A DNA stretch of 61,591 nt, filler included, from Squatina squatina (GCA_031763465.1; 4 parts of 4 records of this genome joined end to end with filler, not necessarily neighbours in it); one strand, 5' to 3'. Positions 40,125 through 61,591 are shown, numbered from the whole stretch's first letter. Notes: generated from the letters alone by a model not told the origin. Program-made: numbers and translations.

Positions 40125-40870
40125 TGGGTTTTTAAGTGATGTTCTCTCAGTCCTGGATCATCCTTTGTTGTTAAAATTGATATTGCTCTCAGTCCCGGAT
40201 CATTATGTGTTTCACAAAGCGAAATGCTGTTGGTCCCGTGTCATTCTTTGTGTTTAAAGTTATATGATCTCAGTCCCAGATCATTCTGTGTGTAAAAGTG
40301 AAGTTCTGTCATTCGCGGCTCATGGTGTGTCTTTTCAAGTGATGTGCTCTCAGACCCGGATCATTCTGTGTCTCTTCAAGTTATGTTCTCCCAGCCGCGG
40401 ATCATTCTGTGATTTAAAATATGATGTGCTCCCAGTCCAGTGTCATCCTTTGTTGAACAGTGATATCCTGTTTGTCTGTTTTTTCAAAATTGACTGTGCT
40501 CTCAGTCCAGCATCATTCTGCGTGTTTTCAAGTAATGCACTGTTGGTCTCAGTTTATTCTTAGTTTTTAAATGTGCTGTGCACACAGTCCCGGATCATTC
40601 TGTGTGTTTAAATCTGATGCTCTCTCAATCCTGGAACAATCTATGTGTTTAACATTGTTCAAATATCATACCGGATCCTTCTGTCTCTGTTTATCAGTGT
40701 TGTGCTGTCAGTCCCGGATCATTCTGTGCCAGTTGAAAGGGATATGTTACTGCCATTATATTCTGTTCCTGGTCGAATTACGTTGTTTTCAGGATCGGAT
40801 CAATCTTTATCTCTTTGAACCCTTTATGCTCACAATACCGGATCATTCTGCCTGTTTGGGGTTTTTAAAC
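40125..40870. repeat. Degenerate ~41-bp tandem repeat (consensus ~CTCTCAGTCCCGGATCATTCTGTGTGTTTAAAGTGATGTG)
   Basis: GGATCA anchors at 40155, 40197, 40358 and 40399, i.e. 40-42 nt period. Confidence 0.85.
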
Positions 40871-43945: not shown

Positions 43946-44199
43946 GTGTAAGAATCGGGCCAAAATGGTGTGTTTTAAGATCAGAAAACCGGAACCACGC
44001 AACAAGGGACCAATGGGTGGACATGGGTCAGGAATTTAAAAACACAGACCACTAACCGGCAGGCACTGAATTACTGCAAAACTCTGTCAATCAAAGAGAC
44101 AATTCAATTAACTGTCAATCAATTAGACATTCCAGCTCCGGGGGCTGGAGGCACCTGTACTTTTAAACGACCAAGGAATTCCCCCACCTCACATTCCAC

Positions 44200-45695
44200 G
44201 GTGTCCTCAGGGGACACCTCAGCGTATTCGCCAAACACAAGCACAGTTGCTGGGGGACTGACTGGGGTGGAGGTCCGGATAGAGGGGGAGCCGATCTCCA
44301 GACCTATCTGGGAGTATAGTTTCCCCCGAGAGGCCGAAGCAGATTTGGCCACCACCCTCGGGTCCCTGACCAGGCAGAGGGTTGTCAGGCCGATAGCAAC
44401 CCAGGTCAATTCCCCTCTCTGGCCGGTCCCAAAATGTCTCGTGGCGAGCAACCGCGGACTATCGGGTCCTGAATAAGAACCTCCCGGCTTGTGCACCCAC
44501 CGTGGCCCTTGTGGCCGATTTGATAGGGACCATCCCCGACACCACCACAGTCTTTTCGGTACTGGATATCTCTAACGGGTTTTGGTTCAACCCGCTGCGC
44601 CGAGAAGACCAGTCGAAATTTGCAATTACGTTCCAGGGCCAACAGTCTACATGGAGGTGCCGTCCACGAGGCTTCCACAACAGTCCGTCCATATTTCGGC
44701 AGAGTATGGTGAACACGTTAATGTCATTCAGCCAGCCTGCCCAGCTGGTGATGAATGTGGACGAACTCTTGTTGTTCACTGAATCCGAGGCGGAGCCTGT
44801 GCTATGCTGGAGGAGCTGCTGGAGTTGATCTCACAGAGTGTGTTGAACGTGAATGCTCAGAAGGCCCAACTGGTCAGAGGGAGGTGAAATTCCCGTTGCT
44901 GACGGTACGGGGAGGGGAGAGAGCAAACGATGAAGCCAGATGGGAAACTGTACAGCAGTTACCCAAACGCAGGGATGTGATGTGGATTAGGTCCTTCCTG
45001 TGGCTGACTTCATCCAGGGCTATGCGGCAACAGTCGCACCTGTGCACTGCCTTCTGCATAAAGGTGTCGCCTGGTAATGGGATACATCCTGCCAGGACGC
45101 TTTTGAGCAATTGAATCGCGACCTGCAGAACGTCCCAGCCCTGGGAGCCATAAATGCAAAGGAGGAGGTCTTAGAGGTGGCTGCCAGTGAGGACAGCTTA
45201 GGAGCCGTGCTGATGCAGGAATGCCACAGCAAGTTGCCTCACGGCTAGTCACAGAAGCTGAGAAGAGTTAGTCGTACTGTGAATGGCACCTCCTCGCCAC
45301 GTACTGGGCAGTCAAGCGCCTTCAACCATTCCCGAGCCTTTCCTCCATCACCCTGCTCACCAAGCACAATTCGACAGCAATGTTGGTGGATGGGCGGATC
45401 AAGGAAGGGACCGTGAGCAGTGTGCACATAATGCGCTGGACCCTGCTCTTGGCCCAATACCCCATCCATGTCCAGGTGCTTGCGGAACTCCGGCTAGCTT
45501 TAAATTTATTGTATGTCGCAGACACACACACGTGTACAGTGGAGGGAGTGTGGGATCAAAATCTGGGATTTATTGCCGGATTATGTCCAAGGGGATGGGA
45601 CACATACATCGATGGGTCGAGCTCCGCATTTGAACGGAAGAGGCTCACTGGCTGCAGAATTTATGACCCTCAGGCCGGAGTGTCCAAGGCGATAA
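44200..45695 (+). mobile_element. Decayed endogenous retroviral pol fragment (RT, tether/first RNase H, start of second RNase H)
   Basis: Across frameshifts: VFAKHKHSC..; EYSFPREAEADLATTLGSLTRQRVVRPIATQVNSPLWPVPK; SWRATADYRVLNK; FSVLDISNGFW; FAITFQGQQSTW..RPRGFHNSPSIF; NVDELL (decayed YVDD); LEVAASEDSLGAVLMQ; SSVHIMRWTLLL; YIDGSS. Cut at the 3' end by a CR1 fragment. Confidence 0.85.
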
Positions 45696-45699
45696 TTAA

Positions 45700-46515
45700 T
45701 GACTTGGCCTCAACGGGCTTCTGAGGTCGAGAGTTCCACAGGTTGGCCAACGTCTGAGTGAAGAAATGTCTCCTCATCTCAGTTATAAATGGCATGCCCT
45801 ATATGCTGAAACTATGATCCCTGGTTCCAGGCTCACCAGCCAGGTGAAACATCCTCCCTGCATCAAATCTGTCCAGTCCTGTCAGAAGTTTATAAGTATC
45901 AGTAATTTCCCTCTGATTCTTCTGAACTCTCGAGGATACAGGCCCAGTCGACCTAATTTCACCTCACACGACAGTCCTGCCATCCCAGGAATGAGTCTGC
46001 TGAACATTCGCTGCAATCCCTCCATCATAAGAATAAGCTTCCTCAGATAATGAGATAAAAACTGCACGCAATGCTTCAGGTATCGTCTCGCCAAGACCCT
46101 ATATAATTGCAGGAAGACATCATTGCTCTTGTCGTCAAATTCTCTCGCAATGAAGGGCAGCACACTTTTTGCCTTCCTGACTGCTTGCTACAGCTGTCAG
46201 TTTAATTTCTGTGACTGGCGTACAAGGACACCCAGGTCGCTTTGTTCCGCCACATTTCCCAATCTATCACCATGCAGAAAATAACCGGCATTTCTGTTAT
46301 TCTTACCAAAGTGGGTAACCTCACATTTTTCCCCGTTATACTGCATGTATTTGCCCACTCACACAAGTTGTCTAAATGGCCTTGTAACCTCTTTGCATCC
46401 TCCTCACTACACATATTCCCACACAATTAACTGGCTTCTGCAAACTTGGAAATATTACATTTAGTTTCATCAACCAAAATATTGACACATATTGTGAATA
46501 GCTGGAGCCCAAGCA
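45700..46515 (-). mobile_element. CR1 LINE ORF2 fragment
   Basis: Minus strand CSEEDAKRLQGHLDNLCEWAN; LQLYRVLARRYLKHCVQF..LIPGMAGLS.EVKLGRLGLY..EFRRIRG. Confidence 0.85.
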
Positions 46516-47490: not shown

Positions 47491-47497
47491 GACAACT

Positions 47498-47737
47498 GCA
47501 GCAGCAAGAGCAGGAGGGGCAGTGGCGAGCAGTATAACCAGCACGGGGCCCACAGAGAGGCCTCAGACACGGCGACAGCAGCAGCGAGCGGAGGAGGGGC
47601 AGCAGAGAGCAGTAAAAACAGCGCGAGAACCACAGAGAGGCCTCAGACACGGAAACAGCAGCAGCGAGAGGACGAGGGGCAGTGGCGAGCAGTATAACCA
47701 GCGCAGTGCCCACAGAGAGGCCTCAGCACCGGCAACA
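47498..47737 (+). repeat. 80-bp monomer array, 3 copies
   Basis: CCTCAG anchors at 47561, 47641 and 47721. Unit GCAGCAGCGAGAGGAGGAGGGGCAGTGGCGAGCAGTATAACCAGCACGGGGCCCACAGAGAGGCCTCAGACACGGCGACA. Confidence 0.92.
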
Positions 47738-49062
47738 CAGAAACATAGAACATAGCAAATAGGTGCAGAAGTAGGCCATTCGGCCCTTCGAGCCTCCACC
47801 GATATTCAACACGATTATGGCTGATCTTTCAACTCAGCTTCATGTACCTTCTTTCTCTCCATACCCGCTGATCCCCCTAGCCATAAGGGCGACACCTAAC
47901 TCCCTTTTGAACATAGCTAATGAACTGGCCTCAACAGCTTCCTGTTGTAGAGAGTTCCACCGGTTCAACACTCTCTGGGTGAAAAAGTTTTTCCTTATCT
48001 CGGTCCTAAATGGCTTCCCCATTATGTTCATACTGCGACCCATGTTTCTGGACGTTCCCAACATCGAGAACATTCTTCCTGCATCCAGCCTGTCCAATCC
48101 CTTAAAAATGTTACAGATTTCTATTTGATCCCCTCTCATTCTTCTAAATTCCAGTGAAAATAAGCCCAGTCGATCCAATCTTTCTTCATATGTCAGTCCT
48201 GCCATCAGAGGAATCAATCTGGTGGACGTTCACTGCACGTCTCAATAGCAAGAATGTCCTTCCTCAGAATAGCAGAACAAAACTGCACACAATATTACAG
48301 GTGTGGTCTGACCAAGGCCTTGTACAACTGCAGTCGGACCTCCCTGCTCCTTTACTCAACTCCTCTTGCTATGAATGCCAACATGCCATTTGCTTTATGC
48401 TGTACCTCCAAAACTACTTTAAATGACTGATGTACAACGACACCAAGGTCTCGTTGCACGTCCCCTTTTCATAATCAGTCAAAATTCAGATAATTATCTG
48501 CCTTCTTGTTCTTGCCACCAAAGTGGATAATCTCACGTTTATCCACATGTTACTGCATCTGCCATCTATCTGCCTACTCACCTAAACGATCCAAGTCACC
48601 CTGCAGCCTCATTGCATCCTCCTCGCCCTGCCACCCCGCTTCGTGTCATCCGCAAACTTGGAAATATTACATTCAATTCCTTTGTCCAAATCAGTAATAT
48701 ATATTGTAAATAACTGGGGTCCCAGCACTGAGCCTTGCGGCACCCAACTAGTCACTGCCTGCCGTTCTGAAAAGGACCTGTTTGCAAACCAGTCTTCCTG
48801 TCTGCAAACCAGTTCGCTATCCACGTCAATACATTATCCCCAATACCATGTGCTTTAGGTTTGCACACTAATCTCTTTTGTGAGACCTTCTGAAAATCCA
48901 AAAACACCACATCCACTGGTTCCCCACTATCCAATCTACTAGTTACATCCTCAAAAAATTCCAAAACATTTGTCAAACAGGATTTCCCTTTCATAAATCC
49001 ATGCTGACTTTGACAGATCATGGCACTGCTTTCCAAATGTGCGGCTATTACATCTTTAACAA
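47738..49062 (-). mobile_element. 5'-truncated CR1 LINE (RT to 3' tail)
   Basis: QHGFMKGKSCLTNVLEFFEDVT..VDVVFLDFQK; [23 protein letters not shown]; FFTQRVLNRWNSL; 3' UTR and TTCTATG-type tail at 47740-47760. Confidence 0.92.
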
Positions 49063-49067
49063 CTGAC

Positions 49068-49500
49068 ACCAGCAGCAGCGAGAGGAGGAGGGGCAGTGGC
49101 AAGCAGTATAACCAGCACGGTGCACACACAGATAAGCCTCAGACACAGCGACAGCTGCAGGGAGAGGAGGAGGGGCAGCGGCGAGCAATAAAAACAGTCC
49201 GGGGCCCACATAGAGGCCTCAGCCCCAAAGACAGCTGCAGGGTGAGGGGGAGGGTCATCAGCGAGCAGTATAAACTGTGCAGAGCCCACAGAGAGGCCTC
49301 AGACTTGGCGACAGCAGCAGCGAGTGGAGGAGGGGCAGCGGCGAGCAATTTACACAGCCCGGGTCCTACAGAGATGGCTCAGTCACGGCGACAACATCAG
49401 TGAGAGGAGGAGGGACAGCAGCGAGCATTATCAATAGTGTGGGGCTCACAGAGATGCCTCAGACCCAGCGACAATAGCAGCGAGCAGACACAGGGCAGCG
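49068..49500 (+). repeat. 80-bp monomer array, ~5.3 copies, in the putative CR1 5' UTR
   Basis: Anchors at 49137, 49217, 49297, 49377 and 49457 give an exact 80-nt period. Same unit as 47498-47737. Confidence 0.92.
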
Positions 49501-52500
49501 GCTAAACCCCACCATAGACCAGCGGCGCATTCCAGACCGACATCATGATTCAATAATTGACACGGGCATGAGGAGGCAGCTTATTGATGAGTGCCATCTG
49601 GTGAGTATTTATACTGCTCTTTAGTTTGACAGTTAAGGCTAATAGTTGATAAGTTGCAGAATGTCTTTAATTTGTGGTTGTGATTGTGGTGCGAAGGGCC
49701 ATTAATTAATTAATACAACTTAATTGATGGTAATTAGTGGGCCTTGATTTCAGTTAATTAAAGGGTAATTCATGTCAGGAGAGCTCGGCCCAGTAGCATG
49801 CTCCTCCTGTGCTTTGTGGGAAATCAGGGACACTTCCAGTGCCCCTGACGACCATGTGTGCAGGAAGTGTATCCAGCTGCAGCTCCTGGCAGACGAGTTG
49901 GCACAGATGGAGCTGTGGATGGATTCACTCTGGAGAATCCGCGAAGCTGAGGATGTCGTGGATAGCACGTTTAGGGAGTTGGTCACACCGCAGTTGAAGG
50001 TTACACGGGCAGAAGGGCAATGGGTGACCGTTAGGCAGTGTGGAAGAAGGCAGGTAGCACAGGAGTCCCCTGCGGTCATCTCCCTCCAAAACAGATATAC
50101 CACTTTGGACCGTGTTGGGGGAGATGGCTGATCAGGGGAAGGTAGCAGCAGCCAAGCTCCTGGCACCATGGGTGGCTCTGCTGCACAAGAGGGGCAGAAA
50201 AAGAGCAGGAGAGCTACAGTGGTCGGGGATTCGATTGTAAGGGGAATAGATAGGCATATCTGTGGCCGCAAACGCGACTCCAGGATGGTATATTGCCTCA
50301 CTGATCCAAGGATCTAGGATTTCTCGGAGTGGCTGCAGGGCATTCCGGAGGGGGAGGGTGAACAGCCAGTTGACGTGGTGCACATAGGTACAAATGATAT
50401 AGGCAAAAAACGGGATGAGATCATACAAGATGAATTTAGGGAGTTATGAGATAAATTAAAAAGTAGGACCTCAAAGTTAATAATCTCTGGTTTACTACCA
50501 GTGCAACGAACTTGTCAGAGTAGAACGAGCAGGATATTTCACGAGAATTTGTGGCTTGAGAACTGTTGCAAGTGGGAGGTATTCAAATTCCTGGGACATT
50601 GGAACCGGTTCTAGGGGACGTGGAACCAGTACAAACCGGATGGTCTGCACCTGGGCAGGACTGGAACTTGTGTCCTCGGGGGAGTGTTCGCCAGTGCTTT
50701 AGGGGGAGGGTTTAAACTAATATGGCAGGGGGATGAGAAGAAATGCAGGGAGACAGAGGCACATAAACAGGTTGCAGATGCAAAAAGTAGGGAGCAGAAA
50801 AGGAGACTAAGAAGGAGAGGGATAGAGTTAATACAGAGACAAGTGTCCTGAATTTAAAGAAAGGTAACTTCGATGGAATGAGACGTGGTTTCGCTGGGAT
50901 AGACTAGCGAATGACACTTGAAGGGCTGATGTTGGATATGCAATGGCAAACATTTAAAGATCACGTTGATGAACTGCAACAATTGTTCATCCCTGTCTGG
51001 CGTAGAAAATAAAATAGGGAAAATGGCTCATATTTGGATAAAAAGGGAAATTAGGGACAGTATCATATCCAAGGAAGAGCCATACAAATTGGCCAGAAAA
51101 TGCAGCAAACCTGGGGACTGGGAGAAGATTAGAGTTCAGCAGAGGAGGACGCAGGATTTAATTAGGAGGGAGAAAATAGAGCATGAGAGTAAGCTTGCAG
51201 GGAACATAAAAACGGACTATGAAAGCTTCCATAGATATGTGAAGATAAAAAGATTAATGGAGACAAATGTAGTTCCCTTGCATTCAGAAACAGGTGAAAA
51301 CTTAATGGGGAACAAAGAAGTGGCAGACAAATTGAACAATGACTTTGGTTCTGTCTTCAACAAGGATGATACAAATAACTTCCTGGAGATATTAGAGGAC
51401 CGAGCGTCTTGCGAGATTGAGAACGGAAAGAAATCCACAATAGTCAGGAAATGGTGTTTGGTAAATTGTTGGGATTGAAGGCAGATAAGTCCCCAGGACC
51501 TGATGGTCTGCATCCCAGAGTATTGAAGGAAGCAGCCCCAGAAATAGTGGATGCATTGGTGAAAATTTTGCAGCAATCTATTGCTTCTAGATCATTTCCT
51601 GTGGATTGGAGGGTAGCTAATGTCACCCCACTTTTTTAAAAAAGGAGGGAGTGAGAAAATAGGGAATTATTGAGCAGTTAGCCTGACATCGGTAGTGTGG
51701 AAGATGCTGGAGACGATTATTAAAGATGTAATAGCAGCGCGTTTGGAAAGCAGTGAGAGGATCAGTCAAAGACAGCATCAATTTATGAAAGGGAATCAGG
51801 TTTGACAAAACTTCTTGAAAATTTTGAGGATGTAACGAGTAGAGCGGATAAAGGAGAGTCAGTGGATGTGGTGTATTGACTGCCAGACGGCTTTTGACAA
51901 GGTCCCACACAAGAGATTAGTGTGCAAACTTAAAGCGCATGATATAGGTGGTAATGTATTGACGTGGATAGAGAACGGGTTGGCAGACAGGAAGCAAAGA
52001 ATAGGTATAAACAGATCTTTTTTTCAGAATGGCAGGCAGGGCCTAGTGGGGTACCGCAATGCTCAGTGCTGGGACCCCAGTTACTTACAATATATATTAA
52101 TGATTTAGATAAAGAAATTTAAAGTAACATCTCCACGTTTGCGGATGACTGGATGCTGGGTGGCAGTGTAAGCTGCGAGGAGGATCCTATGAGGCTGCAT
52201 GAGTAACTTGCATAGGTTAGGTGATTGGGCAGATGCATGGCAGATGTAGTAGAACGTGGATACATGTGAGGTTATCCACTTTGGTAGCAAAAACAGGAAA
52301 GCAGATTATTATCTGAATGGTGACACATTCGGAAAAGCGGAGGTGCAACGAGACCTGGGTGTCATTATTCAGCAGTTGTTGAAAGTAGGCATGCAGATAC
52401 AGCAGGCAGTGAAGAAAGCAAATGGCATGTTGGTCTTCAAAGCGACAGGTTTTGAGTTTTGGAGCAGGGAGTTCATACTGCAGCTGTGCACATACTATTT

Positions 52501-53078
52501 GAGTCCACTCCTGGAGTAGTGTTTGCAGTTCTGGTCTCCTCATCTGAGGAAGGACATTCTTGCTATTGAGGGATTGCAGCAAATGTTCCCCAATTTGATT
52601 CCTGGGATGGCAAAACTGAAATATGAAGAAATAATTGATCGACTAGGCTTATATTCACTGGCATTTAGAAGAATGAGAGAGGATCTTATAGAACCATAGA
52701 GAATTCTTAAAGGATTGGATAGGCTAGATGCAGGAAGAATGTTCCCGATGTTGGCGAAGTTTAGAACCAGGGTCCATAGTCTAAGAATAAGGGGAAAGCC
52801 GATTTGGAATGAGATGAGGAAAAATGTTTTCACCCAGAGAGTTGTGAATCTGTGGAATTCTCTACCACAAGAAGCTGTTGAGGCCAGTTCATTAGCTATA
52901 TTGAAAAGGGAGTTTGATGTGGCCCTTATGGCTAAATTGCTCAGGGGGTACGGATTGAAAGCAGGTACGGCGTACTGAGTTGAATGATCAGCCATGATCA
53001 TACTGAATGGCGGTGCAGTCTCGAAGGGCCGAATGGCCTATGCCTTCACCTATTTTCCACGGTTCTCTGCTTCTGTGT
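49068..53078 (+). mobile_element. Near full-length decayed CR1 LINE (zinc-finger/esterase ORF1; ORF2 RT; endonuclease deleted)
   Basis: ORF1 from ATG 49772: CSSC..WE..HVCRKC zinc finger and coiled coil, then SGNH esterase motifs VVGDSIVRG (~50220), HIGTNDI (~50381) and DGLHL (~50639). ORF2: KSPGPDGLHPRVLKE, DWRVANVTPLF, AFDKVPHKRL, FADD-like site, FTQRVVNLWNSLP. 3' UTR GGCCGAATGGCCTA. Many stops. Confidence 0.93.
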
Positions 53079-53334
53079 ACACCACTGTGCCGCCACCTCA
53101 GCTGTGTCTATCCTGGTAGTGGGAACGGAAACACCCAGAGATGGTAATGGAGGTGTCTGGGACATTAGGTGAAAGGTATAAATCTGTGAATATGACTATG
53201 CCAGGCTGTTGCTTGACTAGTCTGTGGGACAGCTCTCCCAATTTTGACGGAATATCCCAGAAGTTGTTGAGGAGGAATTTGCAGGGTCGACTGGGCTGAG
53301 TGTGCCTTTTTCGAATCCATTGCTGGTGCCAAAA

Positions 53335-54950
53335 AAGAATAAATCAGAATGATAGAAAGAAGGAAATGCAACAAAAGAAAGAACACAGGAGAAAAAGAAT
53401 GGATGAATGAAAGATAAAAAAGGAAAGAACGAAGAATGCAAAAAAGCAAGGAAGCAGGAAAGACGGAAAAAATGAAGACGTTTCGAAAGAAAGAAACAAA
53501 TAAAGATTGAAATAAGGAAAGAATGAAAGTAAGAAAGAAAGAAATAAAGAAAAAAGATAAAAAAACAAAAACAGCAATCAAGAAACAAAATTGCAAGAAA
53601 AAAGAAGGAAAGAAAAGAAAGAAGGAAACAAAGCAAGAAAAAAACACAGACCATGGAAAAGAATAATAGAATGAAGGAAGGATAGAGTAACGCAAGAAAG
53701 GAAGGAAGAAAAAGTGGAAAGTTAGCAATAGAAACAGAAAGAAGGGAACAACGTTAAAAAGTAAGAGTGAAAGAAAGAGAAATGCAAGAACGAATGCCAG
53801 AAGGAAAGAAAAAAGCAGAAATGAAAGAATGAATGAAAGAAAGAGGGAAATAACACAATATAAGGACGGAAACAATTGAAATAGAAAATGCATAAAAAAT
53901 AAGTTTAAAACTAGGATAGATAAAGAAAAAAGGAAAAAAACGCAAGCATGATGGAAAGAAAGAAAGAAAAATTAAGGAAAGGAAGGACATAATGAAATAG
54001 ACAAGCAAAGAGTAAAGAAAGAAGGTGAGAACGAAAGAAAGGATGAAAGAAAGAAGCAAAGAAAGAAAGCATGAATTTAAGTTAGAAGGAAAGAGAGAAA
54101 GAAATAAAGAAAGTAAAAAGCAAACGAGAAATAAGAGAAAGAAGGATGGAAAGAGAGTGGAATGGTAGAAAGATGGAAAAAAGCAAGAAAGAAGCAATGA
54201 AAATGGGAAGAAAGAAAGGAATAAAGCAAAGAAGAATGAAAACAGCAATATAGGAAGAAAGAAGGAAAGAAACAGAACAAGAATGAAAGATGTGCAGAGA
54301 AAAGGATGGAAAAAAACAAAAAAAAACACAAGAATATAGAAAGATTGAATGAAAGGAATCAAGAAAGAGAGAAATAGAGAAATCAGGAAAGAAAAAAAGT
54401 TAGAAAGAAAGAAGGAATTAAAAAAAGGTTTAAAAATAATTAAAAATGCAGGAAAGATAGTAAGACTGAAACAATGGAGTAAAGAGAAAGACTGAAAGAA
54501 CAAAAGGAAAGAAAGACCAATGGAACATCACCAAAGAAAACAAAGAACAAATGACGCAAACAAGGAAAAAACGAGGTGAAAGAAAGAAGCAAAGAAGGAA
54601 AAAAGAAAGATTAAACCAGGACAGATAAAAGGAAATGAAGAAAGATAGAAAATGAGAGAGAAAGAAAGAAAAAAAGAAAGAAAACAGAAAAACTCAAAAA
54701 AGAAAAAAAATAAGGAAACAAGGAAACAACACAAAAAAGTAACAGAAAGAAATCGATGGAAGAATGATAGAAAGAAAGAAAGTAAGAAAGCAAAAAGGAA
54801 GGAAAGAAATAAGAAAGAAAATAGTAACAAAAAAGCAGCAAAGATCTTTAGAAATAAATCAAATAAGACAGAACATTGGAAAGAAAGAATGAATAAAAGA
54901 AAGATAGAAGAAAGGGAAGAAAGAAAGAAAAAAGCACAAAGGAAGCAAAA
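53335..54950. repeat. Long degenerate GA-rich block
   Basis: Purine-rich GAAA/GGAA-derived sequence; its first ~300 nt align colinearly with 43420-43700. Confidence 0.95.
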
Positions 54951-54964
54951 CGATCTTTTTCCAA

Positions 54965-56003
54965 GGGGCAGGCAGTGACATATGGTTACCGCAGGTTTCA
55001 GTGCTTGGAACCCAGCTAATCACCGCATATATCAATGATATAGACAAGGGAATTGAATGTAATATCTTAATATCTGTGGAGGACACAACGCTGGGTGGGA
55101 GTGTAAGCCGTGAGGAGGATGCAGAGAGGCTCCAGGGTGCTTTGGACAGTTTGGGTGAGTGGGCAAACGCATGGCAGATGCAGTATCATGAGAATAAATG
55201 TCAGGTTTTGCACTTTGGTGGCAAAGAACATGAAGACAGGTTATTATCTGAAGGGCGATAGATTAGCAAAGGGGAGTTGCAACGAGACCTGGATGTCCTT
55301 GTACAACTGTTGATGAAAGTAAGCATGCAGGTGCAGCAGGCGGTTAAGAACGCAAATGATATTTTGGGCGTCATAGCGAGAGGATTTGATTACAGGAGCA
55401 GGAATGTCTGACTGCAATTGTGCAAGGCTTTGGTGAGACAACACCTTGAGTATTATCTGCAGTTTTGGTCTCCTTACGTGAGGAAAGATGTTCTTGTTAT
55501 GGAGGGAGTGCAGTGAAGGTAGAACAGACTGACTCCTGGGATGGCAGGACTGACGTATGAAGAGAGATTGGGATGCTTTGGCTTATAATCACGAGAGTTT
55601 AAAAGAACGAGAGGGTATCTCATTGAAAGTTTACTAGCCTGACGGCAGTGGACAGATTAGATGCAGGAGGGATGTTCCCGATGGTGTCACGTCCAGAACC
55701 AGGGGTCACAGCCTAAGGATATGGGGTGGGCCATTTAGGACTGTCATGAGGAGAAATGTCTTTACCCAGAGAGTTGTGGACCTGTGAAATTCGCTGCCAA
55801 AGAAGGTAGTTCAGGACATATCATTAAATATATTCAAGATGGAGTTAGATATAGTTCTCATGGCTGAACAGATCAAGTGATATGGGAAGAAAGCAGGAAC
55901 AGGGGACTGAATTTCGATGATGAACCTGATCATATTGAATGGCGGAGCAGGCTCGATGGGCAGAATGGTCTACTCCTGCTCACATTTCCTATGTTTCTAT
56001 GAC
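54965..56003 (+). mobile_element. 5'-truncated CR1 LINE (RT to 3' tail)
   Basis: [53 protein letters not shown]; 3' UTR GGCGGAGCAGGCTCGATGGGCAGAATGGTCTACTCCTGCTC and tail TTTCCTATGTTTCTATG. Lies between two GA blocks. Confidence 0.9.
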
Positions 56004-58690: not shown

Positions 58691-59664
58691 GAGAATCCGA
58701 CATAAAAATTGGGAAATTGGGGAAAAAGGGAATGAAAGAAAGGAAGTGAGGGAACACAATTGGAGAATGGAGAGAGAAGGATGGAGGGAATGTCTTAGAG
58801 AGTGAACAGTGCAGAGCAAATCAGAGAGGTGGGGAATCAACCCCAGAAATGAAGAAAAATGGCGAGAAAGAGTAAAACGGAAGGAAAGAAAGGGAAAGTT
58901 TAAAACAAAATGCTCTGGATGATGGAAATCTGACATATAAAGAGTAAACACTGCACATACTCAGCAGGTCAGGGAGTGTCTATGGAGGGAGAAACAGAGT
59001 TAACCTGTTCAGGTCGATGGCCTTCCCTCAGGTGCTGACTGAACTGCGGAGGATTTCCATCCTTCTCTCTCTTTATATTATGTCCGGGAGAGATGGAGTT
59101 GGGGAGAAGAATGGAATAAAATATGAAGAGAGAATGAGAGACGAGTGAATGTGAGAAACAAGGGTGGAGAGGCATGAAGAGATAAGATTTGAGTCACTGA
59201 AGGAGATGGGGCGAGGAGCTCACAATAATAACGTGGAATGTGGAAGGAGAATTATGAGAGACGAGATATGCGACAGACAGAGATAATCGAAGAATAGTCT
59301 CCAAATTTCAAGTAAAAATAGCCCATTGATAGGCTCGGTTTCAAAATGGCCTTCTTTGTTCAGCTCCCGTTGAGTCAGAATCTATTGTGATAATCTTTCA
59401 ACTTGTAGCTGTTGTTCCCAAAGGTGACCCCATCTGGTACATGTTAATTGTCTTCTTGTCTGGTGTGTTTCACAATAAAAATCCAGATGGTTTCCCACCT
59501 TGTTTGTTCAACAACCTGGAACAATTAACCTTAGGGAGACAATCTAACAGCATCATTGGGGATTCATGTCATTATAAATAAACCTCTCATTTCTCTTCAT
59601 TGTCTCATTATTCCTTTCAGATCGCTCGCCTCCAACATCCGCAGGATTCCTCAACTCACAGACA

Positions 59665-59734
59665 ATGCGCTGGATATTAATTTATCAGATAGAGGCTGTA
59701 TACTTCCCTGTTCTCGCAGCAGTTGGAGTCCCTG
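59665..59734 (+). CDS. GPR139/GPR142-like class A GPCR, first coding exon (short N-terminus and start of TM1)
   Basis: Acceptor ttcctttcAG at 59620; ACAATGC start at 59665; MRWILIYQIEAVYFPVLAAVGVP followed by a phase-1 donor G|GTAAGT. The Y.P.LA..GVP|xN split matches the GPR139-type intron position in TM1. Confidence 0.85.
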
Positions 59735-60269
59735 GTAAGTTATTGTCAGGACCTCTTGTGGCCATCATTGAGGCTGTCTTCACTCCTATAACTTTTCATC
59801 CACAGTGCTCTCTTCTCTCCTGCTACATTTCATCCTTCACATTGAATTTTAGCAACCGCCTTTTGTCTGTGAAATTTTCCACCCCTCCACTCGCTTTCAA
59901 TCTTCCTGTTGTCGTCTCTCCTTTCGCGTTCATCCTTGTTGTTTTCTCAACTGATCTCTTTCTTTGCTGCTGTTGTCTTCTCTCACACTCCATATTTTGT
60001 TCTTCTTGTCTTCTCTCTCTCTCTCACTTTTAACGGTGCCATTGTCTGCTCTCCCAACCACTTTCATTCTTGGTTCCATCTGTTCTCTCACTCGCTTTTA
60101 ATGCTGCCATTGTCTGCTATCGGACTCACTTTCATCCTTGGTTCAATCTTCTCTCCCACTCGCTTTGACCCCTGGGGATTTCTTCTCCAATCCTGTGCTA
60201 CTATCAAAGTTTTTTTTTTCTCTCTGATTCACTTTCACCTGTCGTGTTTACTGCTTTACATCTGCCATT

Positions 60270-60670
60270 CATCCGCAGTGTTGCGTTCTCTCCAGTCCAC
60301 TTTATCCTCGGAGTTGTCTTCACAGCATTCCTTTTTAACTTCAGTGTTTTCTTCTCTCCAATCCCTTTTATACTCTGTGTTGTCTTCTCTCCAGTCTCTT
60401 TTATCCTCAGTTTTGCCTTCTCTCCAGTCCCTTTTATCCTCGGTGTTGTCTTCACTGCAGTCCCTTTTAACTTCAGTGTTGTCTTCTCTCCAGTTCCTAT
60501 CATCCTCGGTGTTGTGTTCTCTCCAGTTCACTTAATCCTCAGTGTTGTCTTCTCTCCAGTCCCTTTGATCCTGAGTGTCGTCTGCTCACCTGTCCCTTTT
60601 ACCCTCAGTGTTGTCTTCTCATCTGTCCCTTTTACCCTCAGTGTTTTCTTCTCTCCAGTTCCTTCTTATC
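60270..60670. repeat. 33-bp intronic tandem repeat (~12 copies; CTCAGTGTTGTCTTCTCTCCAGTCCCTTTTATC)
   Basis: Clear 33-nt period. It explains the 11-aa-repeat ORFs in several frames (60204, 60244, 60256, 59909). Confidence 0.92.
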
Positions 60671-61275
60671 TTCTGATTGTTTCATCTCTCCCGATCCAAT
60701 TTGCACTTTGTATATTCTTCTCTCTATTTCCTCATATCCTTCTGTTTCTTGATCTCTGCGACCATTTTATCCTTCATATTTTCTTGTGCTCCGCTCCCTT
60801 TCAACAACTCTGTTGTCTTCTCACCTTACAAGTTTTTCCTTATGTATTATTCGCTCGTCAGCTCGCTTTGTTTTTGGGATTGATTTCTTCAAACTCCCCA
60901 GTCTTTATTCTCCATGCTGTCTTATTTCCCACTTCCTCTCTCTACTATTCTTGGTGATGTCTGCTACTCTGACCCGCTCTATCCTTGGTTTATTCTCTTA
61001 TAACGCAGCTCATTTTAATTTTGTTATGTTGATTCTCTCACACTTGGTTTACGCTGTTTCTCGCTTTTTCTTCTGCTCAAGTTTAATCGGGATGTTTTCA
61101 TTATTATCTCTGCTACTTGTTTTATCCTCGTTATTTCCAAGTTTTCGAATCCTCATAGGGGAGGAGATTGGAACACAGGGGTCCGCGTTTAACAAGGAAT
61201 GGCCATGAATTAAGCTGCTTCTTTCCATTTGACTCCGGCTGGTTATTTTACTGTTTTCTTTTCAATTCCTCACAG

Positions 61276-61591
61276 TTAACTTGGTGGCGATTGTGATCCT
61301 GTCCCGGGGAAAGTGCGGACTCTCCAAATGCATCACTCGCTACCTGGTCGCCATGGCGATGGCGGATCTCATGGTGATTGTCTGTAATGTGATATTATAT
61401 CGGATTGCTGATCTTTATTGGGGGATTTCTTTCCTGATTTACACCCCCGTGTGTAGATTCATTCTCTTCCTGTCTCCTACTGCCATAGACTGTTCTGTCT
61501 GGTTAACTGTCGCGTTTACCTTTGATCGGTTTGTTGCTATTTGCTGTCAGAAGCTGAAAAGAAAATATTGCACCGAACAAACCGCTGCTGC
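61276..61591 (+). CDS. GPR139/GPR142-like class A GPCR, second coding exon (TM1-TM3, ICL2; runs off the window)
   Basis: Acceptor ttcaattcctcacAG, phase 1. Open frame VNLVAIVILSRGKCGLSKCITRYLVAMAMADLMVIVCNVILYRIADLYWGISFLIYTPVCRFILFLSPTAIDCSVWLTVAFTFDRFVAICCQKLKRKYCTEQTAA, with TM1 N, TM2 (L)A.AD, extracellular Cys, and SVW.TV..T.DRF.AIC as in the GPR139/142 TM3. Confidence 0.9.

Follow-up and report, generated by a model that had tools for sequence, protein, structure and literature searches.

What kind of receptor is encoded at the end of this Squatina squatina DNA, and is it the aromatic amino acid sensor that its likeness to GPR139 suggests? The window, by which we mean the whole stretch of 61,591 nucleotides that was analysed, closes with a contig on which the first-pass annotation had placed an intact-looking, spliced and stop-free class A GPCR of a divergent, GPR139-like shark subfamily. 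The splice sites and the phase-1 join of the two exons (Table 1) are confirmed, the match of the window piece to Pfam 7tm_1 (34.8 bits; curated cut-off 30.5) marks a class A (rhodopsin-like) GPCR, and the motifs claimed for ICL1, ICL2 and DRF are present in the spliced translation. The spliced frame comprises 128 codons without a stop, from the N-terminus of the product (24 residues) to the start of TM4, and about 190 of the roughly 320 codons lie beyond the contig end. The frame is open as far as it goes, but with the contig ending at the start of TM4 the intactness of the gene is not confirmed.

Two contigs are candidate continuations: C714912 shares 30 nt exactly with the window end and C575140 shares 16 nt, and both are open to the stop codon. 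The rest of exon 2, in which a stop or frameshift would mark a pseudogene, is stop-free in both candidates, within a join at 61591 that is ambiguous because the paralogue contig C331653 ends at the same base. At the other end of the gene, the same GT donor was found in 12 paralogous exon-1 stretches, and the pattern at the end of exon 1 gave 122 genome matches (control: 0). An AG at 59619-59620 was considered as the acceptor of an upstream exon and rejected; it is absent in distant subfamilies in which the TATA box is kept, and for this reason the gene more likely begins with exon 1. Among named proteins, shark ones come closest (80% over 127 aa). Comparison with 13 close paralogues gave pairwise dN/dS values of 0.10 to 0.57, which would suit a gene functional now or until recently, and this substitution pattern shows purifying selection on the window copy.

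Table 1. Features on the last contig of the window, in order of position.
Feature	Position	Strand	Remarks
Contig C1049289	40108-61591		whole contig is the window's last stretch; ends inside exon 2
41-bp tandem array	40134-40466		start of contig C1049289
LTR-retroelement pol remnant, broken	43979..45721	+	RT and RNase H-like pieces in differing frames; outside the gene
80-bp tandem repeat	47494-47726 and 49070-49484		5' end of LINE-like elements
LINE-like RT fragments, several	47735..56001	both	with GAAA-type simple repeats; outside the gene
Forkhead-type site TGTTTGTT	59501..59508	+	72 nt before TATA box
Homeodomain-like CAATTA, then O/E(EBF)-like site	59522..59537	+	O/E-like site with 2 mismatches
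Second O/E(EBF)-like site	59553..59562	+	2 mismatches; immediately before TATA box
TATA box TATAAAT	59573..59579	+	92 nt before ATG; kept in all close paralogues shown
Transcription start, predicted	~59600-59607		
Coding exon 1	59665..59734	+	70 nt, 23 codons and one base; ATG at 59665; short N-terminus, first half of TM1
Intron	59735..61275	+	phase-1, GT-AG (GT donor after 59734, AG acceptor before 61276); directly before Asn1.50; position as in Squatina squatina GPR142
Intronic minisatellite	60271..60670	.	33-bp unit, ~12 copies; similar sequence in introns of paralogues
Exon 2	61276..61591	+	TM1 to TM4 start; without stops; truncated by contig end

The repeat-rich surroundings of the gene had also been said to fit a birth-and-death cluster. 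Retroelement and GAAA-repeat debris is indeed present upstream of it and broken copies exist in the family, but no second family copy was found within the window, and the repeat-rich surroundings of the gene are no evidence for such a cluster.

Both true orthologues are found elsewhere in the genome: GPR139 lies on C168, where it matches the GPR139 of a ray at 96%, and GPR142 on C232 (85% identity), and the window protein is only about 30% identical to them. Phylogenetic trees were built from 67 rows (a quick one) and from 30 and 29 rows (careful ones). In these, the window protein falls outside GPR139 and GPR142 and among many paralogues, and GPR139 and GPR142 form a clade separate from this family; an AU test on a careful tree rejected the grouping of the family with GPR139 (p=0.0003). 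By these trees, the family is a lineage separate from both receptors and mislabelled in databases, in line with the doubt that the first-pass annotation had raised about orthology. An orthologue sensing Trp or Phe could be argued from the best sequence match among solved structures (human GPR139, 38 bits), the database labels and an intron in common. With both orthologues elsewhere, ~30% identity, the AU result and the loss of the binding residues described below, this reading is refuted, and we give it practically no chance.

The family groups with a clade of amphibian and sturgeon receptors at 100/100 support, and its monophyly without this bony sister has moderate support (84/66). Coelacanth, teleost and amphioxus relatives form the next branches beside the two. 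The sister receptor occurs in salamanders, frogs, caecilians and sturgeon with one match per species, and no amniote was among the 25 matches to it. Because amphibians and sturgeon hold this receptor, the lineage is not of shark origin; the quick 67-row tree further showed that the subfamily of the window gene is common to sharks and rays. On both counts, the designation as a 'shark' subfamily needs correction. The amphibian and sturgeon proteins, likewise named 'probable GPR139' (XP_069092602.1 of Pleurodeles; Xenopus, caecilian, Acipenser), resemble the family in their short N-terminus and ICL motifs, and their best matches in Squatina squatina are family members, at most 38% identical. In contrast to the family, the amphibian receptor is 66-74% conserved among amphibians with its single match per species, and the amphibian/sturgeon pocket is near-invariant (five rows) and carries Lys6x51. 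The coelacanth and teleost clades are probably the 'GPR210A/B' receptors, orphans from fish and coelacanth that are related to GPR139/142 (PMC6504862). These are low copy, unlike the family, and the accessible text of that paper makes no mention of sharks.

GPR139 (PDB 7VUG) is the best sequence match in the PDB, and the family keeps the residues Asn1.50, Asp2.50, Asp-Arg3.50, Trp6.48, Asn7.49 and Tyr7.53 of GPR139/GPR142. A phase-1 intron before Asn1.50 is present in GPR142 and in the family loci, the corresponding stretch being unreadable in the GPR139 locus on C168, and this common position indicates common descent. By contrast, GPR139 and GPR142 exist in one copy each and the family in 150 or more, and the family lacks their Glu3x32, Phe3x33, His5x43, Pro6x50, Arg6x51 and Asn7x38. 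It has cysteines in TM3 and ECL2 and cysteine-rich ICL1 and ICL2, which GPR139 does not have. Five cysteines of ICL1 and ICL2 (61295-61575 in the window), with a conservation of 85-100% across the family, are possible lipid anchors or a possible metal site. Two further loci deserve a remark. The GPR139 orthologue on C168 (L053) contains one in-frame TAA in ICL1 as well as assembly gaps, and the TAA may be an artefact of the assembly or a sign that this GPR139 is broken. Another low-copy receptor related to GPR139, at C531514:1-837 (L061), groups with an anchovy protein at 100/99 and keeps Pro6x50 and Arg6x51.

How large is the family? An exact TM3 motif gave 153 matches in the Squatina squatina genome (control: 0). 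As this motif recovers 60-85% of known members (23 of 27 own members, 50 of 83 representative ones), we estimate ~180-250 copies, a number that takes in pseudogenes, fragments and possibly alleles. The proposal of a large, lineage-expanded and uncharacterised family is thus borne out, with at least 153 copies in this genome and broken ones among them. At the DNA level, exon 2 of the window gene found 15 places with 86-100% identity (40 scored of 237 candidates), and a full exon-2 paralogue as query had 676 candidates, of which 128 were scored, each with E<1e-61. According to a hand tally, 94 of these 128 have no stop inside the match and 34 have one, some of which may be natural gene ends. Copies can lie close together, with three within ~65 kb on scaffold C42 and two within 1.5 kb on C4. 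The latter (C4:6327948-6330261, L085) are two exon-2 copies arranged head to tail, 1.4 kb apart, and no exon 1 was found between them. Close copies have at least 3 kb of upstream DNA in common, indicating that they spread by segmental duplication.

The window gene is nested in the clade of this family and has its motifs, its two-exon plan and its promoter. Likewise, DRF in place of DRY is present as described, but it is no special mark of this gene, since 89% of the family carry it. A protein database search returned 2,537 clusters at 1e-10 or better. All 118 named clusters among the 120 listed were 'probable' or 'putative GPR139' of sharks or rays, and no chimaera was among the named matches examined. 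In Pfam, the family matches 7tm_1 only, and true GPR139 proteins carry precomputed Srw/Srx matches. The family proteins are already in the databases, under a wrong name. Some members (P0299, P0271, P0266) go by 'vasopressin V2 receptor-like', 'capa receptor-like' or 'uncharacterized', and owing to such differing names, counts based on names are too low. The exon-1 motif is found in only 36 of 120 database models (P0005-P0124), and most have odd N-termini, which may reflect little RNA support in the annotated tissues.

GPR139 is activated by L-Trp and L-Phe (PMC5430874; PMC8807744), and mutagenesis and structures place the binding site at Phe3x33, His5x43, Trp6x48, Arg6x51 and Asn7x38 (PMC5430874, PMC8807744). 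All of 49 GPR139 and 18 GPR142 sequences carry these residues. Of the five, only Trp6x48 persists across 138 family members (120 from the database and 18 of our own); Arg or Lys at 6x51 occurs in 3 of the 138, and the window protein has Pro3x33. As the residues are gone, sensing of amino acids in the manner of GPR139 cannot be transferred to the family, and the suggestion of an amino acid repertoire is not supported in this form. We compared the entropy of pocket and helix positions, with pocket positions taken from the alignment to GPR139 at ~30% identity rather than from model coordinates and with TM2 left out for its unsure register. The 14 pocket positions reached 2.39 bits against 1.10 for 188 positions elsewhere in the helices (p=1e-5), and the extracellular side 2.08 against 0.87 on the intracellular side. 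GPR139/142 show the reverse pattern, with the pocket as the more conserved part.

Acidic residues recur in the pocket, at 3x37 in 122 and at 5.42 in 86 of the 138 members. A lysine in TM4 is conserved in 97 of the 138 and, judged from the alignment, may neutralise or pair with one of these acids. The subfamily of the window gene has Asp3x37, Glu or Asp at 5.42 in 32 of 33 members and no Arg6x51, and fish TAARs use Asp5.42 for binding amines (PMC4695389). The model of a relative (P0006) has seven helices (pLDDT 83) and matches class A structures; in the fold search with it, GPR139 was not separable from other peptide receptors.

The window subfamily conserves its deep pocket and varies in ECL2 and ECL3. 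Omega was 0.98-1.03 in the loops versus 0.38-0.40 elsewhere for the 3' half and 0.78 versus 0.26 for the 5' half, with the C42 copy that contains a stop excluded from the codon models. By these estimates the outer loops evolve near neutrally, and since their omega is not above 1, the values fit relaxed constraint. Site models gave p=0.058 (M1a/M2a), p=0.044 (M7/M8) and p=0.019 (M8a/M8) with a single site and gene conversion uncontrolled, so that positive selection is weakly supported.

These values bear on the idea that the copies are largely neutral segmental duplicates of a peptide receptor from the brain or neuroendocrine system, having no function as a repertoire. The duplicated units do carry at least 3 kb of flank, omega in the loops is about 1, the fold matches are generic peptide receptors, and Atlas neighbours include FMRFamide-receptor-like clusters. 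However, about three quarters of the scored matches are open, omega of the core is 0.26-0.40, the window subfamily is common to sharks and rays, and the promoter is kept among copies that are only ~50% identical in protein. We therefore consider neutral duplication improbable.

The promoter of the window gene consists of a distal site, TGTTTGTT, which we take to be of the forkhead class from its consensus, two O/E-like sites, the first of them preceded by a homeodomain-like element, and a TATA box (Table 1). For the family, 86 exon-1 regions were reduced to 68 with enough upstream DNA and to 32 non-redundant promoters, 23 of which were anchored and 9 not anchorable. The forkhead-type site was found in 23/32 promoters (shuffle mean 1.7), a TAAYTAAT-type site in 14/32 (1.2) and TATA in 20/32 (3.8), comparisons that overstate the motifs because these had been selected by visual inspection of the sequences tested. 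In 16 of 19 cases, the forkhead-type site and TATA are spaced by 72-73 nt, and TATA lies at ~78-100 nt before the ATG in most distant subfamilies examined. The family element TGTAAYTAAT is degenerate in the window subfamily.

O/E sites were not enriched by plain presence (11/32 versus 11.4 in shuffles). They stand out by position only, and with mismatches: the first EBF-like match occurs at its offset in 7 and the second in 9 of the 23 anchored promoters, against 0.44 expected for each. In other copies, the second site can also be read as CTNNAG or as a kB-like element. A homeodomain and O/E composite resembling the Lhx2-Ebf type was seen in 5 of the 23. We rejected the exact composite as a trait of the window copy, its CAATTA being absent from three sister copies. 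A search with the forkhead-homeodomain pattern returned 63 genome matches (control: 0); 22 of 30 fetched matches precede a family exon 1, and 6 of the other 8 are cut by contig ends. The pattern is nearly exclusive to the family. In some copies (L191, L218, C648066), the forkhead-homeodomain block is present in tandem with a 51-nt spacing. It is a safe conclusion from these counts and positions that the family shares one predicted regulatory programme. EBF, homeodomain and forkhead factors are active in many cell types, and the same elements can be read in different ways, an NKX2-type reading suiting the promoters about equally well and a kB-like one suiting a few.

FoxA and NKX2-type factors control foregut genes, and under their control the family could serve as nutrient or metabolite sensors in endocrine cells of gut, gill or pharynx, extending the role of GPR142. 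The forkhead-type site is the strongest promoter element, the NKX2-type CTNNAG is found at the proximal site in 11/23 and the exact CACTKGA in 6/23 anchored promoters, and the intron is shared with GPR142. On the other hand, hundreds of variable copies would exceed what such sensing needs, EBF-like sites recur at two fixed offsets, and the amino-acid-binding residues are lost, leaving this reading a small but appreciable chance. A sensor of innate immunity or tissue damage on leukocytes or barrier epithelia, comparable to MRGPRs or formyl-peptide receptors, would suit the birth-and-death pattern (34/128 matches with stops) and the fast change of the outer loops over a deep pocket kept within the subfamily. 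EBF1 acts in B cells, and a kB-like GGRRRHTTCC stands beside TATA in 4/32 promoters (shuffle 0.1). However, strict kB (1/32) and ISRE (0/32) were not enriched in the 32 promoters, nor were octamer and E-box, and we regard an immune function as quite unlikely.

The reading that we favour, with about an even chance of being right, is that the window gene is a recent copy within a two-exon GPCR family of more than 150 copies, which would detect environmental chemicals as a receptor repertoire of sensory neurons or sensory epithelia. The family has many copies with gains and losses, and a variable pocket is joined to a conserved signalling face. Odorant receptors, TAARs and V2Rs share with it the many and broken copies, the variable pocket above a conserved intracellular face and the short N-terminus. 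The O/E-like, homeodomain and TATA elements predicted in the promoter would also recall those of odorant receptors, and the acid at 5.42 is found as in teleost TAARs. In the mouse, O/E, homeodomain and TATA sites are enriched in odorant-receptor promoters (PMC3247239), and an Lhx2-Ebf composite is present in the enhancers of these receptors (PMC5608512). In contrast to these receptors, the family has an unrelated ancestry within class A, a coding intron and a strong forkhead-type site, an element absent from the accessible text of PMC3247239. The nematode srw genes and the candidate chemoreceptors of Aplysia are chemosensory expansions that likewise came from peptide-receptor-like stock (PMC3963977), but independent of the one in sharks. 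Against the favoured reading, no GPCR appears in the top 50 brain-and-nose genes in the accessible part of a catshark study, although V2Rs are likewise absent there (PMC11979771).

For a chemosensory repertoire, we envisage that an ancestral receptor whose ligand was fixed, and which persists in amphibians and sturgeon, would have been multiplied together with its promoter by segmental duplication. The module of forkhead, homeodomain, O/E-like and TATA elements would drive all copies in one cell class. Each receptor, with a predicted disulfide between TM3 and ECL2 and a conserved intracellular face, would signal via one G protein shared by all copies, which by analogy with GPR139 is probably Gq or Gi/o, and different copies would detect different ligands. 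With Asp3x37, Glu or Asp at 5.42 and Arg6x51 missing, the window subfamily would favour positively charged ligands, for instance an amine or a basic peptide, over Trp or Phe. More tentatively, and with less than an even chance as judged from gene sequences, the family may be a fifth chemosensory family of sharks and rays that is larger than their known olfactory families, derives from a GPR139-related receptor kept as a single gene in amphibians and sturgeon, has a promoter like that of smell receptors, and is partly tuned to amines via the acid at 5.42.

No account of the expansion was found in the open literature; subscription papers or supplements could hold one. A recent survey of chordate GPCRs reportedly named a receptor family of cartilaginous fishes in innervated epithelia. 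The expansion is not discussed in the accessible parts of PMC12294341, PMC11886862 and PMC11979771. A term search did not find the family in the supplements of PMC11372145, PMC13188829 and PMC10115646, whose tables may list locus numbers only, and found only the true orthologues in that of PMC9605692. The present analysis adds both true orthologues in one genome, a formal tree test, the sister gene of amphibians and sturgeon, promoter counts across the whole family and greater caution about selection.

Cartilaginous fishes are reported to have few olfactory receptors (PMC10116579) despite their reputed sense of smell, and the family would change these counts if it is sensory. If it is not, it would represent a large unknown system of immune or gut sensing. 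The sister gene in Xenopus and axolotl and the shared 100-bp promoter offer cheap and direct handles on the function of the family.
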